A stretch of 62,403 bases of DNA from a virus (lineage: Duplodnaviria > Caudoviricetes), in IMG/VR virus record IMGVR_UViG_3300047195_000664, positions 1 through 62,403 of that record. The stretch is one strand, 5' to 3'. The notes under the pieces were generated by a model, which saw only the letters and a program-made list of their open reading frames with translations, made no database searches and was not told the origin of the DNA. Both the position numbers and the translations under genes were made by a program. The stretch's first letter is position 1. The number at the start of each line of letters is the position of its first letter. Positions 10,466 through 37,729 of the stretch are shown here, piece by piece.

Positions 10466-10540
10466 TAGCGAGGACTGGATTTGAACCAATGACCTCCTGC
10501 TTATGAGGCAGGCGGGAACTCCTGGCTTCCCCACCTCGCT
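10466..10540 (-). tRNA. tRNA-Met(CAT), archaeal initiator-like (A1:U72), no encoded CCA
   Basis: Full cloverleaf AGCGAGG...CTCATAA...GTTCAAATC...CCTCGCT-A. Confidence 0.9.
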
Positions 10541-12548: not shown

Positions 12549-13298
12549 TTATCGATTGGCATTTGCGCTCGCCTCCAATTTTTGACACACTCCTCTATAG
12601 GGGCACCAATAACATTTAGCTTCTGGATTCTTTTCAAATTCTTCGTCGTCTATCTTTTTTCGAATTACTTCAACCTTTGCTAATGCCTCTTTGATGTGGT
12701 GTTCATTAAGTTTTATTTTAAATACTTTTCGTTCATCTACCCCAATTATTCCAATACTAATAGGGCTATCTCCATAATATTTTTGGTCAATTAAACTAAA
12801 TTTACCAATAAATGCTTCTTTGAACATGTGAGCATATAATGCTAACTCAAAAATGTGTGGTTTAATACTTTTCGCGTTTCCTGTTTTATAATCATATACT
12901 TCATATACTTTGTCTTCTAAATTATAGTCCACTCTGTCAATTATACCTTTTAGTGTTCTAGTTTCTATTGTTACTTCAGTGAGTAAAGGTAGTGTATAAT
13001 TTGGACGGCTATATCTTATAATCTCATAATCAACAAGATTTGTTAAAGGAATCTTATGTTCTTCATATTTCGGTCCCGCGGCTATTTTCATTGTTCTTCT
13101 CATTATATCAGGTGTTATTATTGCCGGAGTTATTTTATTTTTATGTAGGTCATTAAAGAACGTTTCTATGATTTTGTGTACTTCCCATCCTCTTTTCATT
13201 GCTGGAACTGAAGGTCGCGGTAGTTCCATAATATATTCGAACTTAAACTTCCTTGGACAAAACTCATAGCACAATATTTTGGATTTTCCTAATTTCAC
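12549..13298 (-). CDS. Cas4/RecB-like PD-(D/E)XK exonuclease with Fe-S cysteines
   Basis: FCPRKF, GIIDRVD, DYKTG, CYWCPYRGVC. Confidence 0.85.
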   Translation of the reverse strand: MKLGKSKILCYEFCPRKFKFEYIMELPRPSVPAMKRGWEVHKIIETFFNDLHKNKITPAIITPDIMRRTMKIAAGPKYEEHKIPLTNLVDYEIIRYSRPNYTLPLLTEVTIETRTLKGIIDRVDYNLEDKVYEVYDYKTGNAKSIKPHIFELALYAHMFKEAFIGKFSLIDQKYYGDSPISIGIIGVDERKVFKIKLNEHHIKEALAKVEVIRKKIDDEEFEKNPEAKCYWCPYRGVCQKLEASANANR

Positions 13299-15607: not shown

Positions 15608-15744
15608 ATATCCACAATTTCTTCTTCTATTTCTTTTGGTAGGTCGTGATGAAGATATGCATCTTCCCCATACGATGCTTCTCCTTTCGCTATTCTTTCT
15701 CGCATCTTCCCTACGAACTCATCTAATTTTTTTATGTCTTTCAT
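15535..15744 (-). CDS. All-alpha NTP pyrophosphohydrolase-like protein (MazG-type)
   Basis: R...G...YG...EIEEEIVD acidic helix pattern. Confidence 0.45.
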   Translation of the reverse strand: MKDIKKLDEFVGKMRERIAKGEASYGEDAYLHHDLPKEIEEEIVDMCVWSFLMWNKLQKLKKKIESVKE

Positions 15745-16265
15745 AGTAACAACGACCTCATAAATTCTTCTTTGGGAAACTTGCCCGGCTCTGATACTAA
15801 GAATACACCTCTTACTTCATTTGTTACCATATCTGAAGTTTTCTTTTTTACTCCTCTGCAAGCCATGCACTGATGTTTTCCAATTAATACTACCATCGAA
15901 CCTTTAGGTTTTATTTTTTCTTCGAGCTCCTCTATAATTTGATATGCCATAACTTCTTGTGTATTTGGTCTTGCCGCATATTTATCAACAAGTCTCGCTA
16001 ACTTGCTTGCGCCTGCTCGCCATTCATTTGGTATATAACCCACATGTGCTACACCTTCAAAAGGTAATAAATGATGTGAGCAAAGACTTGTAAATTCTAT
16101 ATTTCTTAATATCACCATTCCTGTTGTCGTTGGATTTTTATTTGGAAATATTGTAAAGTTGAAGTCATGCCTTTTCTTTAGCTCTTCATAAAATCTTTGT
16201 ACGCGCCCCGGGGTATTAGCTAATTCTTCTTCATTAAATAATTCATCTGGTAACTCAATTTTCAT
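15741..16265 (-). CDS. folE: GTP cyclohydrolase I
   Basis: TPGRV, SLCSHHLLPF, SKLARL, HQCMACRGV. Confidence 0.95.
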   Translation of the reverse strand: MKIELPDELFNEEELANTPGRVQRFYEELKKRHDFNFTIFPNKNPTTTGMVILRNIEFTSLCSHHLLPFEGVAHVGYIPNEWRAGASKLARLVDKYAARPNTQEVMAYQIIEELEEKIKPKGSMVVLIGKHQCMACRGVKKKTSDMVTNEVRGVFLVSEPGKFPKEEFMRSLLL

Positions 16266-16987: not shown

Positions 16988-17275
16988 TCACCTCGCTAAT
17001 GTTATGTTTTGATTCCTTCCTCTCCATTCTTCCATTGTGTCTCCTTTTTTTAATATCTCCTTCGGAAAATCTGCTCCTCTTATAACAAGTGCTATTATAA
17101 GTTCTGCAATTACACATGGTTCACCAAGGCAATTGTTAGGATTTTTATACACCGCTTTTAAACATCCTTTGAGTGACATCCAATCGGTTATCTCGCTCTC
17201 CTTAACCTTTATTTCCGCGATACATCTATTAAATGGAATTCCTTCCCATTTATTTAGTGTATTGATTGAGCACAT
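16988..17275 (-). CDS. Hypothetical protein
   Basis: Fills the operon between queC and the dpdA-like gene. Confidence 0.5.
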   Translation of the reverse strand: MCSINTLNKWEGIPFNRCIAEIKVKESEITDWMSLKGCLKAVYKNPNNCLGEPCVIAELIIALVIRGADFPKEILKKGDTMEEWRGRNQNITLAR

Positions 17276-17951
17276 CTACCGCTTCCTCCCATTCTTTACC
17301 TGTTAGAGCAGGGTCTTTTAAATCATTTTTTACAAAAGCTTCTGTTCTTTCTATACATGTTCCGCATTTTAAACAAGGTCTTCCGTTTTGTGGATTATAA
17401 CAACTCCAAGTTAACTCAAGGGGTGCGTTTAAGTTTTTTCCTAGTTGTACAACATCCGCTTTCGTTAAACTTATAAATGGTGCTCTAAGAATAACTGCTC
17501 CTTCGGTACTTTTAAATATAGCTTCTTTCATTGCCGCTACAAACTCTGGGCGGCAATCTGGGTATATAGTTTTGTCATTGGTGTGTGCCGCATAATCTAC
17601 ATATTTGGCACCAATTGTAACTGCCCATCCTGTTGCTAATGACAACATAATCATATTCCTGTTGGGAACGATAGTAGACTTCTGAGATTCGTCCGAATAA
17701 TGTCCTTCAGGTATGGATTCATCTCCTGATAATGAACCTTTTCGTATTAGTTCATTGATAGACTTTATGTTCACAACTTTGTGATTTATCCCTAGTTTTT
17801 TTGCAATCTTTTTTGCTCTCGTAATTTCTATATCGTGACGTTGTCCATAGTTAAATGTTAACGCATTTACTTCATATCCTGTTTTTATTAATTGACAAAC
17901 CATAGTCACGGAGTCAATACCTCCTGACATTATTGCTACAACTTTACCCAT
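17250..17951 (-). CDS. queC: 7-cyano-7-deazaguanine synthase
   Basis: SGGIDS, FNYGQRH, VPNRNMIML, YPDCRPEF, TWSCY, CLKCGTC. Confidence 0.97.
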   Translation of the reverse strand: MGKVVAIMSGGIDSVTMVCQLIKTGYEVNALTFNYGQRHDIEITRAKKIAKKLGINHKVVNIKSINELIRKGSLSGDESIPEGHYSDESQKSTIVPNRNMIMLSLATGWAVTIGAKYVDYAAHTNDKTIYPDCRPEFVAAMKEAIFKSTEGAVILRAPFISLTKADVVQLGKNLNAPLELTWSCYNPQNGRPCLKCGTCIERTEAFVKNDLKDPALTGKEWEEAVDVLNQYTK

Positions 17952-18008
17952 TTGCCCACCTCTTATTTTTTTAAAATTAGGGAAAATTAAGGGATGTTTT
18001 TAATATCA

Positions 18009-18138
18009 CACATATTTCATATGTGTTCATATTGTTGTTTGCGTGAAAGTTATGGAACTCTCGGCTCCTTTGGAAGATTTTTGATTGGATAATCTAATAT
18101 AAAAACCTTCCAAAAACTCCTGCAACTCCTAACTATCA
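18009..18138 (-). ncRNA. Intergenic structured RNA (95-nt rod plus small hairpin) between queD and queC
   Basis: UUUUUGGAAGGUUUUU/AAAAAUCUUCCAAAGG and outer helices with G-U pairs on the minus strand. Confidence 0.55.
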
Positions 18139-18153
18139 TTTCTCCATTACTTT

Positions 18154-18633
18154 TTAAACTTCCGCAAAGGCGTTCTTATTTTCCCACACTTTAATTGATA
18201 CTGTGTATCCTGGTACTATACTTCTCTTTAGTTCTGAACGTATATATTCTGCTAATATTTCTGCTGTAGTGTTTTCTATTGGTAGCATAGCGAATTCTTC
18301 TAGTACACCAATCACTTCTAAATCTCCGCATACTCTTTTTGCAGATACAGCAATACTATTATCATTATTAGCTACCACAATATTTTTATTTTTCATAGGT
18401 ATAAGTATCTTATGGTCTAACTCTTTGAGAATATTACTCAATAAACTCTTAATTTGTGAAAAGTCAACTACTATTCCATTAAAGCTTAACGAGCCTTCTA
18501 TTGTGACGTCTACATCCCAATTATGTCCGTGTAGATGTGAACACTTTTCATGCCAAGGCAAAAAATGCGTTGCACTAAAACTTTCTCCTATTCTAGATAC
18601 TTTAACTTTATCAGTTGTTCCCATATCAAACAC
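18154..18633 (-). CDS. queD: 6-carboxy-5,6,7,8-tetrahydropterin synthase
   Basis: FSATHFL, CSHLHGHNW, VDF, LDHK, TTAE, VWE. Confidence 0.95.
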   Translation of the reverse strand: MFDMGTTDKVKVSRIGESFSATHFLPWHEKCSHLHGHNWDVDVTIEGSLSFNGIVVDFSQIKSLLSNILKELDHKILIPMKNKNIVVANNDNSIAVSAKRVCGDLEVIGVLEEFAMLPIENTTAEILAEYIRSELKRSIVPGYTVSIKVWENKNAFAEV

Positions 18634-26583: not shown

Positions 26584-27243
26584 TTAAACACCTCTCTTCT
26601 TACCCCATAACCAAACATGCAATCTCATCGTAAAACGCCAATTTCTTTCTTTACAAATTTCTACAATCCATTTTGCGTTTCTTTCCATCTTGTCTTCTGT
26701 TTTACCTTCTGGCATTAACATTATTTTGTTTTGGACAAGATGATATTTCTCTATCAGGGCGTCTATTTCATATATATCGCTTTTTTGAGACACCACAAAC
26801 TTAAAGAATGCGTGTCTTCTCGGTGCGTTAAAATAACTATAGTGTACTATCTTTTTAACATTCTTCGAGTTTGATAATTTAGGTGACACGTTCCATAAAT
26901 CTACACCATTCGATAAGTTATAGTTGTGTGGTTCTATTGTTCCGTTTGTTTCTACTTCTACATAATACCCCGCTAATTTTAATTGGCCAACAAGTGAACT
27001 TACCTCTTCTGCTTGTAATAGAGGCTCGCCGCCCGTAATTACTACATGCTTGCATGGATATTTCATTATTTCAACAAGTAGCTCGCCTATAGTCATTGTA
27101 ACTCCAGCTTTATATTCGTTTGCATATTTAGTGTCGCAGAAACTACAGTTCAGATTACATCCTGCTAAGCGTAAAAATACAGCTGGCTTTCCAGCATTAA
27201 TGCCTTCGCCTTGCACACTATAAAATATCTCGCTTACTTTCAT
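26584..27243 (-). CDS. queE: 7-carboxy-7-deazaguanine synthase (radical SAM)
   Basis: EIFYSVQGEG, CNLNCSFCDT, TGGEP, ETNG, SPK. Confidence 0.96.
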   Translation of the reverse strand: MKVSEIFYSVQGEGINAGKPAVFLRLAGCNLNCSFCDTKYANEYKAGVTMTIGELLVEIMKYPCKHVVITGGEPLLQAEEVSSLVGQLKLAGYYVEVETNGTIEPHNYNLSNGVDLWNVSPKLSNSKNVKKIVHYSYFNAPRRHAFFKFVVSQKSDIYEIDALIEKYHLVQNKIMLMPEGKTEDKMERNAKWIVEICKERNWRFTMRLHVWLWGKKRGV

Positions 27244-29746: not shown

Positions 29747-30446
29747 TCTTTTCACCTTTTTCCTCTCTAATTGTGGCCACCAGGTCACAAAAGTGCAACT
29801 TCGCGCCCAGTTCATTTGGCATTCCTTTAAATCCACTCCATCCGCCATGATGGAACTGTAGCGCGTTTATTTGGTCTGGTAATAATTGAACATTGTATTC
29901 ACACAACATTATGATAGTATTTAATATGTGGTCTGTATTAGGTTCTTTAAAGATAACCTTATCTCCTTCCCAACCATATGTCCTTGCTTTACCAATATCA
30001 TGTGTTGCCGCCAAAAACTGCAACTCTTTATCATTAGGGAAGAACTCTTTTGCTACCTTTAATGTGTTATCGAGATGTTTAAGTAATCCACCTTTAGTGT
30101 TTAAATGATGCTTCTCTGAGGCTGGTGCATCGTGTAATTCTTCAAGGAAATATTGTAATACGCCTTCTACTTGTTTTTCTTCTTCTTGTTTTTCTTCTTC
30201 TTGTTTTTCTTCTTCTTCATTCTTCTTCATATAACCTATTATAAATGCAAGAGCTTGATTTCTGTTATAAAAGTCCATATCTAATTTATCTCTTTCACTT
30301 GTCCAACCCAAATCATCTATCACTCTTACTCTGTAAATATACTTTTTGTTTTCCTTTGTTTCAAATACAGCAATTGCAATATTCTCAACTTTTCTTTTAT
30401 GTTTCCATGTATTTAATGATGTTCGTTTCCAATCTTTTAATGCCAT
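29733..30446 (-). CDS. HD-domain phosphohydrolase (YhaM-like) fused to an N-terminal small domain via EEEKQ repeats
   Basis: PAS.KHH...GGLLKH, THDIGK, DH, FHHG, CD. Confidence 0.85.
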   Translation of the reverse strand: MALKDWKRTSLNTWKHKRKVENIAIAVFETKENKKYIYRVRVIDDLGWTSERDKLDMDFYNRNQALAFIIGYMKKNEEEEKQEEEKQEEEKQVEGVLQYFLEELHDAPASEKHHLNTKGGLLKHLDNTLKVAKEFFPNDKELQFLAATHDIGKARTYGWEGDKVIFKEPNTDHILNTIIMLCEYNVQLLPDQINALQFHHGGWSGFKGMPNELGAKLHFCDLVATIREEKGEKNESK

Positions 30447-30464
30447 TTATTTCACCTCATTAAT

Positions 30465-30543
30465 ATTAACAGGGCAACACGCCACACTGTTCAGAGTAAC
30501 ATACTCAGCTCTCACGAACCGCAGCACTTGTTGCCTTTCTGCT
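30465..30543 (-). ncRNA. BHB/BHL-closed structured RNA (predicted 70-nt excised RNA)
   Basis: GCAG-AAA-GGCAACA ... UGUUGCC-CUGU-UAA; internal GGUUC-GUGA-GAGCU GNRA hairpin. Confidence 0.7.
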
Positions 30544-30659
30544 TCGTTCACTGACTTATGCTTAAACCACATCAGTGAACATCTAACCCACTTATGTAAG
30601 GAGGTTAAATTCTATACACACTTGGGGTTGTGGTCAAACTCATATGAACTTTCATTCAC

Positions 30660-30795
30660 ATGAAATGCCTGGCACACGAGGCTTTGTGTTTATGACATGC
30701 TATAGATTATCACAAACACTTTACAAACTACCGCTTGTATAACATTTCGCCTGCAGATTTATCCACCGGGGACTCCGGCGTGCCTTTAGGCTCAT
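30660..30795 (-). ncRNA. BHB-closed structured RNA (canonical; predicted 121-nt excised RNA)
   Basis: AUGA-GCCU-AAA-GGCAC ... GUGCC-AGGC-AUU-UCAU; internal hairpins with G-U pairs. Confidence 0.75.
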
Positions 30796-30986
30796 TTTTC
30801 ATCATCTAATATTACAAATAATCCATTAGTTGCTATTAGGAACTCGTCTAGTCTTCCCATCTCTTCCAATACTCCATGCTGGTCGTTTATACTTTTAGTC
30901 CTATTGAAATCGTTTTCTAGTTCACTTCTTCTTACCTTAACAAGATATCGTACAAGCTCCATTGCGCTGAATGATATTCTTTTCAT
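30792..30986 (-). CDS. Hypothetical protein
   Basis: GGAGG RBS. Confidence 0.55.
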   Translation of the reverse strand: MKRISFSAMELVRYLVKVRRSELENDFNRTKSINDQHGVLEEMGRLDEFLIATNGLFVILDDEK

Positions 30987-32306: not shown

Positions 32307-33389
32307 TTTAATTCACTTCTACCTATACTTATAGGAATATAAGTCTTTTAAAAAAACATATGCCCATCATAATATAATCTAATCATCCCATTCTTTTGCT
32401 CTATCACCCAAGCCTGTAATGAATCGTGCACCACAACTTGTGCATTTAAAAAGGTCGCCGTTAAGTTTGCCGTGGAATTTAATTGAGATAACCTTGATTC
32501 CAGTCTCTAAGCAAATAACATTAGGACTTCCGCATTCGCTACATTGGATATGAACCATTGTTAATCACTCAAACCCATCTCTTTTCTTAATTCATATTTT
32601 TCGTGCCGTCTTTTTATCTCTCTTGATACCATAGATTTGACAACATTAATACCGAAACCATTAAATGCTGTGTTAAAAAATTCCCAGCGTAAAATAATAT
32701 CTAGCGCCTTCTCTACTTCTTCTATTTTCTTTCTATCCATATTAGTTATCTCTTTCTCCCAATCACCTAATGTTATTGTTGCCATAATAATTACCCTTTT
32801 AATATTAGTGGAATACATTCGCCACAATAATAATTGGCTTGATAGTCTTTGTAATAGTTTGGATAATGTAATATTGTCCCGCATTTAGAGCATCTTCTTT
32901 TGCTATGCGTATTCTTCCGCGCCTCTTCGTTCATGGCTTCGATGCGTGCTTTTATTTGTTCTTGTGTTGGTAACATAATAATCATTCCGTAATACCTTGC
33001 TCCTTTAAAAACTTACCAAGACAATCTCTACACGATTTACATTGTGTCACATGAGCTATGGTAAGTATATATCTCGTTGAATCATCTTCATTTAGTTCTA
33101 TTTTCATAATACTACACCTTCTCTATACTTATAACCTTTATTCCAGTGTCGCTACCGTAGGCTTCTTGCATTAAATCGATTAAGCTTCCAGTTCCTACAA
33201 AACTATGGAATGCGCTGTCTTCGTCGATTTCTATTGTTACGGTTACTATTTCTTTCATAATTAATCACCTTGGTTTTCTATTATCATAATTTGTTCCTTT
33301 TTCACCTTCTATACATTCTTCACACAGCTTTCCGCTGCGTATTGGAACTCCGCATCTTTTACATTTTGGCATATTCTTTACCTCCTTTT

Positions 33390-33547
33390 GAGCTATTGGA
33401 TATAGCAGGACAACGAACTATCCGCTTCGTTTGCAAGACGAATCTTTGCGGACAATACCACCAACTCAAAATCGCTGATGACATCGTTTGCGGCGCCCAT
33501 TTAGAAACACAATTTCGTCACCGTTGTCTTTCTGCTCCCAATAACCC
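33390..33547 (-). ncRNA. BHB-closed structured RNA (predicted 127-nt excised RNA) directly after the origin-proximal promoter
   Basis: GGGUUAUUGGG-A-GCAG-AAA-GACAACGG ... UCGUUGUC-CUGC-UAU-A-UCCAAUAGCUC. Confidence 0.78.
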
Positions 33548-33569
33548 GATTGGTATGTTTAATTAACTA

Positions 33570-33623
33570 TATTATCCTTGCGCTACTTTAAATACTTTTA
33601 TATTGTATAATATATAGATTTTA
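33570..33623 (-). promoter_or_regulatory. Promoter: operator (33606-33623), 11 bp, TATTTAAAGTAGCGCAAGG
   Basis: 15-nt identity with the promoter at 36919. Confidence 0.75.
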
Positions 33624-34038
33624 AAAACGAATGAGTTTTTTAAGAGCATCATTTTAAGCGTTGTTTAAGAGATACGCAAGGAAAGGTTAAAAAATCATGA
33701 GTTTTTACATCTTTTTAAAATATAGCTTGAAATATAGGGTGGTAGTGGAGGAAAGGTATATAGGGACGGACCGACTAATAGACACAGGAAGAGGGTCAGG
33801 GACGAAAGGGAAAAGATATAATATGTAATATAATCATGTATATATATATATTATTCTTATTATCTTTCTCTCTTTCCCCGTCGTCCTCTACCTCCGTCCC
33901 TGGCTCCGTTCACCACCCTATTTATTAAGCGATATATTTAAAAAGATGTAAAATCCTATCGGTTTTCAGCATACGATATGGAAGCTCTTAAACAACTCTT
34001 AAAATGATGAAATCAAAAAACTCATAAGAAATTAAAAT
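33618..34038. repeat. ~420-bp imperfect palindrome with AT-rich centre; putative replication origin
   Basis: Symmetric blocks about centre 33828; GGGACG motifs; (TA)n core. Confidence 0.8.
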
Positions 34039-34100
34039 GCTTAAAAAAGGATAAAGCGCCCGTCTTCAAATCACGGGCAAAAAATAATATGTTCTCTCTT

Positions 34101-34352
34101 CTACTTGGTTTTCACAACAAGCATGTAGAATTTCTCGCCGTTAACAACACGGCTTTCTAACTTCTTTTGCCTGTACTCAAGGTAGTTGAGTATATTCTTA
34201 ATTTTCTCAACTCCTGCGAATGCTGTCAGTTCCTTCAAGCTGTAACCGGTATCAGGTTTCATGTTTGTTATAATCTTTGGGCCCACACCAGAACCGCCTG
34301 CGATTCTTGCTCTCTTTGCTCCTTTTAAGAAGTCGTTTTTGTTTATTGGCAT
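34101..34352 (-). CDS. Small winged-helix protein (paralog family MxIxKxxF)
   Basis: GYSLKELT...ILNYL...KLESR.V...FY wHTH pattern. Confidence 0.7.
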   Translation of the reverse strand: MPINKNDFLKGAKRARIAGGSGVGPKIITNMKPDTGYSLKELTAFAGVEKIKNILNYLEYRQKKLESRVVNGEKFYMLVVKTK

Positions 34353-34451
34353 AATCTTTTCACCTTATCGCTCTTTGTCCCATCATATGAAGGTCAGGGC
34401 TCAAACATAATATCTCCGTCAGCTTGCGCCAACGATGATTATGATTTATAA

Positions 34452-36025: not shown

Positions 36026-36238
36026 TCCGTGAGATCGCGCCTCACTTCAATTTTGTTCTCGTAAACTAATACGCGTTTCGTTTATTTGTCTCTCAAAACT
36101 AATATGTTTCGGTTATCGTATGTTTACTTTCTTTCTCCCTATGTTTATAGTCTCTTTCCATAGGGAGCCATAGGGCCTTTGGTTTCTCCTTATCTTATGT
36201 CGCCTCTAACCTATATCTTAGAGGCGCTAGGTGGGACC

Positions 36239-36285
36239 AAAAAAAAAGGTTGGAAGATATATCTTACATCAACTATCTTCCAACT
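36239..36285 (-). terminator. Hairpin plus T9 terminator after the wHTH gene; overlaps an operator copy
   Basis: GTTGGAAGATA/TATCTTCCAAC stem followed by a T-run on the minus strand. Confidence 0.65.
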
Positions 36286-36291
36286 TATATT

Positions 36292-36543
36292 TTACAATCT
36301 CATGAAATAAGGGACATTATTCACACTTCTTTTTTCTATCTTGCTATCTCTCATTAGATTGTTTAAAGCTTGTTTGATTTTCTTTATTCCATTTTCTTTT
36401 TGTGCAAGTCCATTTGTGTTTTTTGTTATCTCTTCAAAGTTTACTGCTTTGTCTTTTGGGATTGCATATAAAATCAATCCTCTAAAACTTGTTCCTTTCA
36501 CATGCTTGCTTCCTTTCATGAACTCTTCTTTCGTTATTGACAT
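36292..36543 (-). CDS. Small winged-helix protein (MSITKEEF), first gene of the minus arm; candidate regulator
   Basis: AVNFEEI...IKQALNNL...KIEKR.V...YF; paralog of 34101-34352. Confidence 0.7.
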   Translation of the reverse strand: MSITKEEFMKGSKHVKGTSFRGLILYAIPKDKAVNFEEITKNTNGLAQKENGIKKIKQALNNLMRDSKIEKRSVNNVPYFMRL

Positions 36544-36958: not shown

Positions 36959-37729
36959 GTGTATAACATGAAAAAATGGTTATTAATAGTTCTTTTTGGG
37001 TTTATTCTATCTCTTGGAAGTATTGGTTTCGCGTACTACCCTTCATGCAACTCACTTTGTGAATATTATTCATATGAATCAGGCACATGTTTATATTCTT
37101 GTTGTTCAAGTCAGGTTAATATAGGGCACGATAGTTGCCTTGGTGGCAAGTATTGTTGTTGTACGCCGTTTCCGCCCACAACTACTACCAGCACAACTAC
37201 GACGACAACAACTACAGAGCCGCCCACAACAACCACGACAACTGTAGAAACAACTACAACCACCGAGGAAACGACAACTACCACAACAACAACCATGCCT
37301 GAAGAGACGACTACTACAATAGAAACAACAACAACAACCATTCCTGAGGAAACTACTACAACAACGATAGAAGAAGTAACTACAACTACTGCCCCTTCTG
37401 AAAGCGGGTATGCGCCTTATAGTTTTCATTGTGTTAATTTTGGTGGATATTGTACAGAAGATTGGGACTGCTGTAACGCGCTAAAATGTGTAAATAGAAT
37501 TTGTGGCGCGGCACCTACTACAACTGTTACAACAACTATCGAAGTTACGACGACACTTGAAGTTACTACAACAACCATCGAAGACATAACAACAGAAGAA
37601 ACAATAATAGAAAACGAAGATGAAGAACCACCTGAAGAAGATAATTCATTATTATACATTGGTGCTGGAGTTATCAGCGCCGGTGCTATTGGTACTGGCA
37701 TATATTACAAGAAGAAAAAGAAATCATAA
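36959..37729 (+). CDS. Secreted, C-terminally anchored Cys-rich / Thr-rich mucin-like membrane protein
   Basis: Signal peptide, two Cys-rich knots, poly-Thr tracts, TM helix plus KKKKK. Confidence 0.85.
   Translation: MYNMKKWLLIVLFGFILSLGSIGFAYYPSCNSLCEYYSYESGTCLYSCCSSQVNIGHDSCLGGKYCCCTPFPPTTTTSTTTTTTTTEPPTTTTTTVETTTTTEETTTTTTTTMPEETTTTIETTTTTIPEETTTTTIEEVTTTTAPSESGYAPYSFHCVNFGGYCTEDWDCCNALKCVNRICGAAPTTTVTTTIEVTTTLEVTTTTIEDITTEETIIENEDEEPPEEDNSLLYIGAGVISAGAIGTGIYYKKKKKS

Follow-up and report, generated by a model that had tools for sequence, protein, structure and literature searches.

A bulge-helix-bulge-bounded hairpin in a putative transcript leader of a probable archaeal tailed virus: a candidate substrate of the host splicing endonuclease

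The known substrates of the archaeal splicing endonuclease are tRNA introns, rRNA processing stems, the cbf5 intron and a single intron in a 5' untranslated region (UTR) of Haloferax (PMC7714728). The last of these, in the HVO_1309 transcript of Haloferax volcanii, has the bulge-helix-bulge type of motif (BHB) at its borders, is 46 nt long, occurs as a circle in vivo and serves as a substrate for the recombinant splicing endonuclease; it is a cellular element conserved in haloarchaea, and the regulation of genes after repression of endA is listed in Supplementary Table 1 of the same article (PMC7714728). A 158-nt BHB-bounded hairpin, designated E1, is described here on the minus strand of the IMG/VR virus record IMGVR_UViG_3300047195_000664, which was analyzed over its whole length of 62,403 bases (the window). 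E1 resembles the HVO_1309 intron in being a BHB-bounded piece of 5' UTR that lies between a transcription start, predicted in the case of E1, and the start codon of a protein gene. It differs in the length of the enclosed RNA (127 nt), in its branched interior, in being viral and without a homologue, in the 5-bp central helix that it prefers, and in being a prediction from sequence.

Other described systems can also be compared with E1. In archaeal pre-rRNA the BHB lies in a long helix formed by the 16S and 23S flanks, and circular pre-rRNA intermediates occur (PMC7714728). The stem of E1 has the same layout, in which a long outer helix is followed by a BHB and then by an inner helix (11, 4 and 8 bp in E1), so as to close off a structured RNA that would itself be the product; E1 differs from these stems in its position in a putative mRNA leader and in its 127-nt interior. 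In pre-tRNA the 5' strand of the central helix, on the anticodon side, belongs to the 5' exon (PMC4090602), and this rule was used to place the cuts predicted for E1. The canonical register of E1 is that of tRNA introns, a 4-bp helix flanked by 3-nt bulges, whereas its context is not a tRNA and the 5' bulge is nearly always AAA in the viral set described below. Endonucleases of the (alpha-beta)2 and epsilon2 types have broad specificity and accept relaxed hBH and HBh' sites (PMC4090602; PMC3239211); the half-motifs of a second element of the same virus (E2) and of two related viruses (L015, and G001 at 7774-7687), each with one bulge and two helices, resemble such sites. The cbf5 pre-mRNA intron of Crenarchaeota lies within the coding sequence and has to be removed to restore the frame (PMC2738675). 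It is like E1 in being a BHB-type intron of a protein-coding transcript, whereas E1 lies in the leader and its excision would change no frame. A full-text literature search, within the portions of articles open to it, found no description of a BHB element in an archaeal-virus transcript. If cleavage is confirmed, E1 would be a viral, leader-borne, BHB-bounded RNA and possibly one of a family.

Geometry, stability and setting of E1

A minus-strand reading combined with prediction of the minimum free energy (MFE) and centroid folds confirmed the BHB-like hairpin of the first-pass annotation, together with its strand and polarity. Two 3-nt bulges on opposite strands are unpaired in both folds and are flanked by helices on both sides, namely an 11-bp outer helix past an A.A mismatch and an 8-bp inner helix (Table 1). 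The order along the 5' strand is outer helix, central helix, bulge and inner helix. This is the polarity of a genuine BHB, with the 5' bulge between the central and inner helices and the 3' bulge between the central and outer helices. Among the interior helices that had been proposed, UUCGU/ACGAA and UCCGC/GCGGA are present in the centroid, but GGUGAC/GUCAUC is absent from both the MFE and centroid folds, in which a 13-14-bp helix takes up GUCAUC. Folded as a circle, the 127-nt interior reached -28.8 kcal/mol.

The 168-nt E1 stretch had an MFE of -54.5 kcal/mol against a shuffle mean of -40.8 kcal/mol (standard deviation 3.95, z = -3.46), and 1 of 200 shuffles was equally stable; the opposite strand reached only -38.4 kcal/mol, and with three G.U pairs in the outer helix the fold is specific to the strand of the genes. 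Its stability was tied for second place among 2964 windows of 168 nt taken from both strands, and its GC content of 46%, compared with about 33% overall, ranked 12th of 3113. A BHB scan based on pair counts placed E1 at the top of 699 matches with a score of 19, a score equaled or exceeded in 2 of 6 block shuffles; this statistic was judged indecisive and a test of BHB arm energy was used instead. By arm energy E1 was the best match in the window at -25.9 kcal/mol, the next real match being at -18.1 kcal/mol, and the best value per shuffled window ranged from -9.7 to -16.7 kcal/mol, so that none of the 20 shuffles reached E1. The energy test is decisive that the BHB of E1 is far beyond chance.

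The first-pass annotation had also placed a TATA box about 40 nt before the hairpin and the end of the hairpin just before a GGAGG motif, and both positions were correct; four bases separate the hairpin from GGAGG. The TATA box forms part of a motif resembling the transcription factor B recognition element (BRE) and TATA box, present in its exact form at 33599-33587. With up to 3 mismatches allowed, the motif was matched 10 times in the window against 6.0 times expected by chance, which is weak alone, and some of the other matches precede other transcription units. In a relative (L002, 7904-7887) an identical run of 18 bases is followed directly by a short leader, a ribosome-binding site (RBS) and ATG, so that E1 has the appearance of an insertion, about 160 nt long, into a leader that would otherwise be short. 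The 35-aa open reading frame (ORF) downstream of E1 gave a weak double-zinc-ribbon match in Pfam (E = 0.0026, under the curated cut-off). Since a terminator-like site ends the upstream unit, transcription from the promoter would reach the hairpin first, as had been proposed, with the start predicted from the position of the TATA box.

The promoter had further been described as flanking a putative origin of replication. The inverted repeat at 33740-33945 to which this refers is real, but the lowest point of the cumulative GC skew is at 36-38 kb, as is the strand switch. The repeat is large and imperfect, with G-rich and C-rich arms, an AT-rich center and flanks extending from about 33700 to about 33990. 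A contig of the sequencing run X3 joins opposite strands around it, at 33637/34041 and 33672/33966.

Known RNA classes were considered for E1. The Rfam search that had been suggested as a check returned no family for E1 at the gathering threshold, riboswitches included; over the whole window only the tRNA at 10466-10540 passed. In E-value mode, the region 33300-33650 gave two matches only (E = 8.8 and 9.1), and the sole C/D family match of that region (E = 9.1) lies outside E1. A C/D box small RNA, a class that in archaea is often excised by way of a BHB, would have a C box RUGAUGA near its 5' end and a D box CUGA near its 3' end, forming a kink-turn; it was rejected, as the minus strand of E1 contains neither UGAUGA nor CUGA and has only GUGACGA, and an H/ACA assignment was rejected on reading of the sequence. 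An intrinsic terminator or attenuator was likewise rejected: the 3' arm of E1 is followed by AAAAGGAGG and no U-run.

Table 1. Positions of E1 and its parts, of related elements and of other features. Rows marked window refer to the IMG/VR record; the remaining rows refer to related viruses.
Feature	Record	Position	Strand	Remarks
E1, 158-nt BHB-bounded hairpin	window	33547-33390	minus	sequence reading, MFE fold
E1 outer helix	window	33547-33537 / 33400-33390	minus	11 bp, 3 G.U; MFE and centroid; pair probabilities 0.94-0.99
E1 mismatch	window	A33536 opposite A33401	minus	4-bp register
E1 central helix	window	GCAG 33535-33532 / CUGC 33408-33405	minus	A33536-U33404 possible fifth pair
E1 5' bulge AAA	window	33531-33529	minus	unpaired in MFE and centroid; predicted cut 33530/33529
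E1 3' bulge	window	UAU 33404-33402 (4-bp register) or AUA 33403-33401 (5-bp register)	minus	predicted cut 33403/33402
E1 inner helix	window	33528-33521 / 33416-33409	minus	8 bp
Predicted excised RNA	window	33529-33403	minus	127 nt, multibranched interior; putative excision
BRE/TATA-like motif, AAAAG + TATTTAAA	window	33599-33584; TATA 33594-33587	minus	sequence reading; 40 nt before hairpin
GGAGG, ATG and 35-aa CxxC...CxxC ORF	window	33385-33265; GGAGG 33385-33381, ATG 33372	minus	sequence, ORF list
Terminator-like GC hairpin and T-run	window	34078-34043	minus	sequence reading; closes upstream unit
Second, strict BHB	window	30795-30660	minus	AUGA/GCCU/AAA/GGCACGC ... GUGUGCC/AGGC/AUU/UCAU
E2, paralogue of E1 bulged arm	window	30543-30468	minus	AGCAG-AAA-GGCAAC ... 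GUUGCC-CUGUU; then GAGGUGA and ATG of HD-domain gene
BHB element	G003 (L033)	17856-18034	sense	-19.1 kcal/mol; between small ORF and GGUGA-AUG
BHB element	G001	12614-12738	sense	full hBHBh', 8-bp outer helix, about 25 nt past TTTATAAA box
Two elements	L015	6626-6756, 6920-7004	sense	two copies GGCG-AAA-CAGCAGG ... CUGCUG-CGCC-AAA; one in leader, one between genes
Element	G001	7774-7687	sense	between stop codon and AUG
tRNA-Met (CAU)	window	10466-10540	minus	Rfam; first base A can pair with U72; ERCC4-nuclease ORF directly after
GTP cyclohydrolase I	window	15741-16265	minus	Pfam
QueC	window	17250-17951	minus	Pfam
QueD-like PTPS	window	18154-18633	minus	Pfam
Radical-SAM, QueE-like protein	window	26584-27243	minus	Pfam

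Related elements in the same virus and in its relatives

A non-coding stretch of about 350 nt on the minus strand (30446-30793), 3 kb downstream of E1 in the same operon and between a 64-aa ORF and an HD-domain gene, contains a strict BHB, several hairpins and E2. It folds at -119.3 kcal/mol (z = -5.77, 0 of 100 shuffles). The strict BHB has a 4-bp outer helix, the central helix GCCU/AGGC, AAA and AUU as bulges and a 7-bp inner helix; its arm energy of -18.1 kcal/mol is the second in the window and lies beyond all 20 shuffles, and its 4-bp outer helix is absent from the MFE fold. E2 is a paralogue of the bulged arm of E1. The two have AGCAGAAAGRCAAC and GUUGYCCUGYU in common, in the arrangement AGCAG-AAA-GRCAAC ... 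GUUGYC-CUGYU, and differ by one compensatory change from A-U to G-C and one from G-C to G.U; the likeness carries on through the 3' flank as far as the RBS. E2 was rejected as a full BHB for want of an outer helix, a form that is known in the literature as HBh' (PMC4090602). Also in the 350-nt stretch, ACCUCCUUA can pair with the RBS region of the HD-domain gene, UAAUGAGGU.

A further AAA-bulged hairpin (E0) occurs on the minus strand at 35395-35338. Its lower helix is 9 bp long, its inner helix is UUAACAAC/GUUGUUGA, and its CAAC/GUUG recurs in E1 and E2; the hairpin sits in a doubtful 47-aa ORF, 40 nt ahead of an AAGGAGG RBS. At 21346-21275 the strict BHB pattern is present but is not part of its own MFE fold, and this candidate was set aside as weak.

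Close relatives of the virus were sought in viral_contigs by means of the 121-aa ORF, the HD protein, the family-B DNA polymerase and the SNF2 helicase, and none was found; an alignment of the AAA+ protein against genome_contigs likewise gave none. Blastn of positions 32900-34400 against 50,697 phage records gave no match. Relatives by the AAA+ protein are 43-57% identical to it and come from contigs of 54-68 kb. A scan of 366 kb of their sequence for the strict 3-4-3 geometry yielded 35 distinct matches at or below -10 kcal/mol, compared with 13 and 14 in two shuffles, and 11 at or below -14 kcal/mol, compared with 1 and 2. After removal of near-duplicates (a 333-kb set), 14 of 31 strict matches fell in the 11% of bases that lie outside ORFs of at least 70 aa. 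Every analogue listed in Table 1 is a sense-strand element of a leader or an intergenic stretch.

About 4.7 kb separate the G003 element from the AAA+ gene, which is on the opposite strand; E1 has the same arrangement. In the corresponding region of strain L018 (5873-6206) 160 of 160 interior positions agree, against 90% identity over the block as a whole, so that the interior is more constrained than the neighboring genes; in the arms, one C-to-U change leaves a G.U pair in place and a second change disrupts an inner pair. The element had no Rfam match, and a scan of viral_contigs with its interior returned G003 itself only. In both strains the structured RNA measures about 180 nt and has a small ORF on either side. 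In L015 the same BHB arms flank a 62-aa ORF resembling a zinc finger, and the first 5' arm could pair with the second 3' arm, skipping the ORF, which would make alternative excision possible. Other matches in relatives were discounted or given little weight: L010 2624-2565 shows the strict pattern but not in its own MFE fold, and L010 2386-2325 and the matches at L008 197-508 consist of palindromic and low-complexity sequence.

Proposed processing of E1 and competing explanations

The reading that is put forward, tentatively and with a confidence somewhat below even, is that E1 is a BHB-closed substrate of the host splicing endonuclease and releases a 127-nt RNA from the leader. The paralogues and analogues make it plausible that E1 is a functional BHB-type element. 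The reading is further favored by the fit of geometry and polarity to hBHBh', by a BHB energy beyond chance, by the strand specificity of the fold, by the insert-like position in the leader, by the excess of strict matches over shuffles in the relatives and their frequency outside ORFs, by the identity of the G003 and L018 interiors, by the HVO_1309 precedent and by the likelihood of an archaeal host. Transcription would begin about 13-18 nt upstream of the stem, as judged from the BRE/TATA motif at 33599-33587, and the leader would fold into the 158-nt hairpin. The tRNA-splicing endonuclease of the host (EndA) would then recognize the two 3-nt bulges and cut past the second base of each (33530/33529 and 33403/33402), after which the host ligase RtcB would join the exons to give a short hairpin leader and would circularize the 127-nt interior. 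E1 would in this way behave like the HVO_1309 intron and like the processing stems of pre-rRNA.

A number of results weigh against this reading. The 4-bp GCAG/CUGC helix of the first-pass annotation is formed, but a strict length of 4 bp requires that A33536 and A33401 both be unpaired and is not the preferred register: in the free-RNA ensemble A33536 is paired to U33404 with a probability of 0.97, so that the central helix has 5 bp and the bulge reads AUA; adopting the canonical register of 4 bp costs +2.4 kcal/mol. Exact scans of viral_contigs for the 5' arm and for the inner hairpin of E1 gave 0 and 0 matches. A covariance model built from E1 (R1) and run against 25 sources, 24 of them related loci, retrieved only itself and one 13.9-bit match in L025, which was rejected since it lies inside a 265-aa ORF; the same model matched 0 of 3 whole related records. 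E1 thus appears to lack a homologue among the sequences searched and hence offers no covariation. The three sequencing runs compared with the window are all DNA and none RNA; run X2, a second sample, is identical to the window over 33297-33447 and 33463-33613, and E1 is not covered in run X3, so that the runs provided no natural variants of E1. Neither EndA nor RtcB was found in the four records of the virus and three relatives (0 of 4 for each), with controls positive in 4 and 10 of 14 genomes, so that the host would have to supply both.

The scans of relatives add to these adverse points. Across the family, decoy geometries were nearly as frequent as the strict one: at cut-offs of -10, -12, -14 and -16 kcal/mol the canonical geometry gave 31, 19, 9 and 5 matches, compared with 21, 8, 4 and 1 for its mirror image, 31, 18, 11 and 5 for 2-nt bulges and 33, 18, 8 and 3 for a 3-bp helix. 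Seven of the 21 mirror matches are the other strand of canonical matches. Most analogues have an outer helix of just 2-4 bp. Among 441 helices a 3-nt gap on the 3' side showed no clear preference (77, against 50-68 for other gaps), and such a gap was present in 8 of 26 helices with an AAA bulge. Finally, excision leaves the predicted accessibility of the RBS unchanged, and splicing brings no visible translational gain. Masking of the RBS by E1 was rejected on this ground, which directs attention to the released RNA or the new 5' end; the product that matters is probably one of these two and not control of the RBS.

The most probable alternative, though an unlikely one, is that the AAA-bulged hairpin is the site of a viral or host RNA-binding protein (a translational operator, an antitermination site or a packaging signal) that EndA does not cut, the second bulge of E1 being incidental. 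AAA is over-represented in 5' bulges, occupying 13 of 88 stable helices (at or below -13 kcal/mol) against a triplet frequency of 4.3%; the shuffles gave 5 of 47, 2 of 44, 0 of 44 and 1 of 40, and the 3' side gave 4 of 83. Some sequence-specific factor other than EndA may be responsible; EndA is not known to require so specific a sequence, a further point against cleavage. In the same direction, the arms of E1 and E2 are alike in sequence and not in shape alone, E2 and E0 (35395-35338) are without a second bulge, the preferred register of E1 is 5 bp, and all instances lie just upstream of an RBS or start codon. Set against this are the lower helix, which is exactly 4 bp and closed by a mismatch in 6 of 10 instances and has 4 or 5 bp in the remaining four, and the long outer helices of E1 and of G001 12614-12738, which stand exactly one 3-nt bulge away. 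The arm sequences vary from virus to virus (GGCG, GCCU, GACU and CUGC), which argues against a single sequence-specific protein. A kink-turn (an L7Ae site), in which tandem sheared G.A and A.G pairs follow a 3-nt bulge, was rejected as well, because G33528 and A33527, after the AAA, face C33409 and U33410 as Watson-Crick pairs.

A second alternative makes E1 some other structured leader or small RNA, such as a stabilizer against exonucleases, a sensor of ligand or temperature, or the remnant of an insertion, with a functionless likeness to a BHB. The presence of a very stable, dominant stem near the transcript 5' end would fit this view, as would the other structured non-coding stretches of the window (30440-30800, z = -5.77; 36100-36310, z = -4.87) and the near parity of decoy and strict geometries. 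It is judged slightly less likely than the first. The BHB energy of E1 is far outside chance, inserts closed by a BHB recur at like positions in relatives, no Rfam family is matched, and accessibility of the RBS is independent of E1. The insertion-remnant variant is countered by the occurrence of E1 as a single copy in the record without repeat flanks, which shows that it is not a repeated mobile element.

That there is no functional RNA at all, the fold being due to chance or to the coding of protein by the overlapping ORFs of 98, 35 and 41 aa (plus strand 33270-33566; minus strand 33393-33500 and 33359-33484), is very improbable in spite of the pair-count result, since none of the shuffles reached the BHB energy, the GC content is raised, the inner minus-strand ORFs have neither an RBS nor a family at or above cut-off, and the plus-strand ORF, named in the first-pass annotation as a possible refutation, was not upheld, having no Pfam family, no homologue at E <= 0.01 in a comparison with proteins 53-172 aa long, and a course antisense to the RBS-preceded zinc-ribbon ORF.

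Beyond E1, it can be asked whether a whole lineage of archaeal tailed viruses of 60-70 kb uses the tRNA-splicing endonuclease and ligase of its hosts as mRNA-processing machinery, with diverse, lineage-specific structured RNAs closed by BHB or HBh' stems, mostly bearing an AAA bulge and placed in leaders and between genes, excised from polycistronic transcripts and probably circularized. This wider proposition is regarded as doubtful. If it is true, the viruses would make stable circular RNAs and processed mRNAs, these would be the first viral BHB 'introns', and the elements would form an archaeal counterpart of the RNase III sites of phage T7. In T7 early mRNA, bulged RNase III hairpins lie just past promoters and between genes of a polycistronic transcript and are cut by a host nuclease that processes rRNA. 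The parallel with E1 is one of logic only; the enzyme, the fold and the domain of life are different. Cleavage of E1 and its analogues, if it occurs, would show that viruses exploit the host splicing-endonuclease pathway, would bring viral circular RNAs into archaeal biology and would provide compact natural BHB cassettes with varied cargo.

The virus, its gene content and other structured stretches

The window comprises the whole IMG/VR record, with an estimated completeness of 82%. Matches to PHROGs identified a large terminase and a major head protein, and Pfam families were found for a family-B DNA polymerase, a SNF2 helicase, an ERCC4 nuclease, an MCM-like AAA+ protein, an RNase H, a PD-(D/E)XK nuclease, a clamp loader and a clamp. 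Among the 50,697 phage records the large terminase matched haloarchaeal tailed viruses only (10 of 10 records, 24% identity). The last 22 bases of the viral tRNA-Met had matches in archaeal genomes only (7 of 7), the identity of the whole tRNA to these genomes being 48-64 of 75 positions; its 3' half matched Methanomicrobium, Micrarchaeota, Aenigmatarchaeota and one further archaeon about equally. The sequencing runs that contain window DNA are labeled freshwater sediment. Because of the terminase and tRNA matches, the window is likely to derive from a tailed virus of an archaeon, in this case from freshwater sediment.

The genes for GTP cyclohydrolase I, QueC, a QueD-like protein and a QueE-like protein (Table 1) together correspond to the preQ0 or 7-deazaguanine pathway, with which some viruses modify their own DNA. 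Two further stretches drew attention by their structure or composition. GT-rich repeats at 37120-37290, within the 256-aa ORF at 36959-37729, gave the most stable antisense fold of the window (-55.8 kcal/mol) and contain several chance BHB-like matches. In the divergent region, the plus strand at 36100-36310 is a structured intergenic stretch (-59.5 kcal/mol, z = -4.87, 0 of 200 shuffles) with three clean hairpins, one of which is followed by an A-run.

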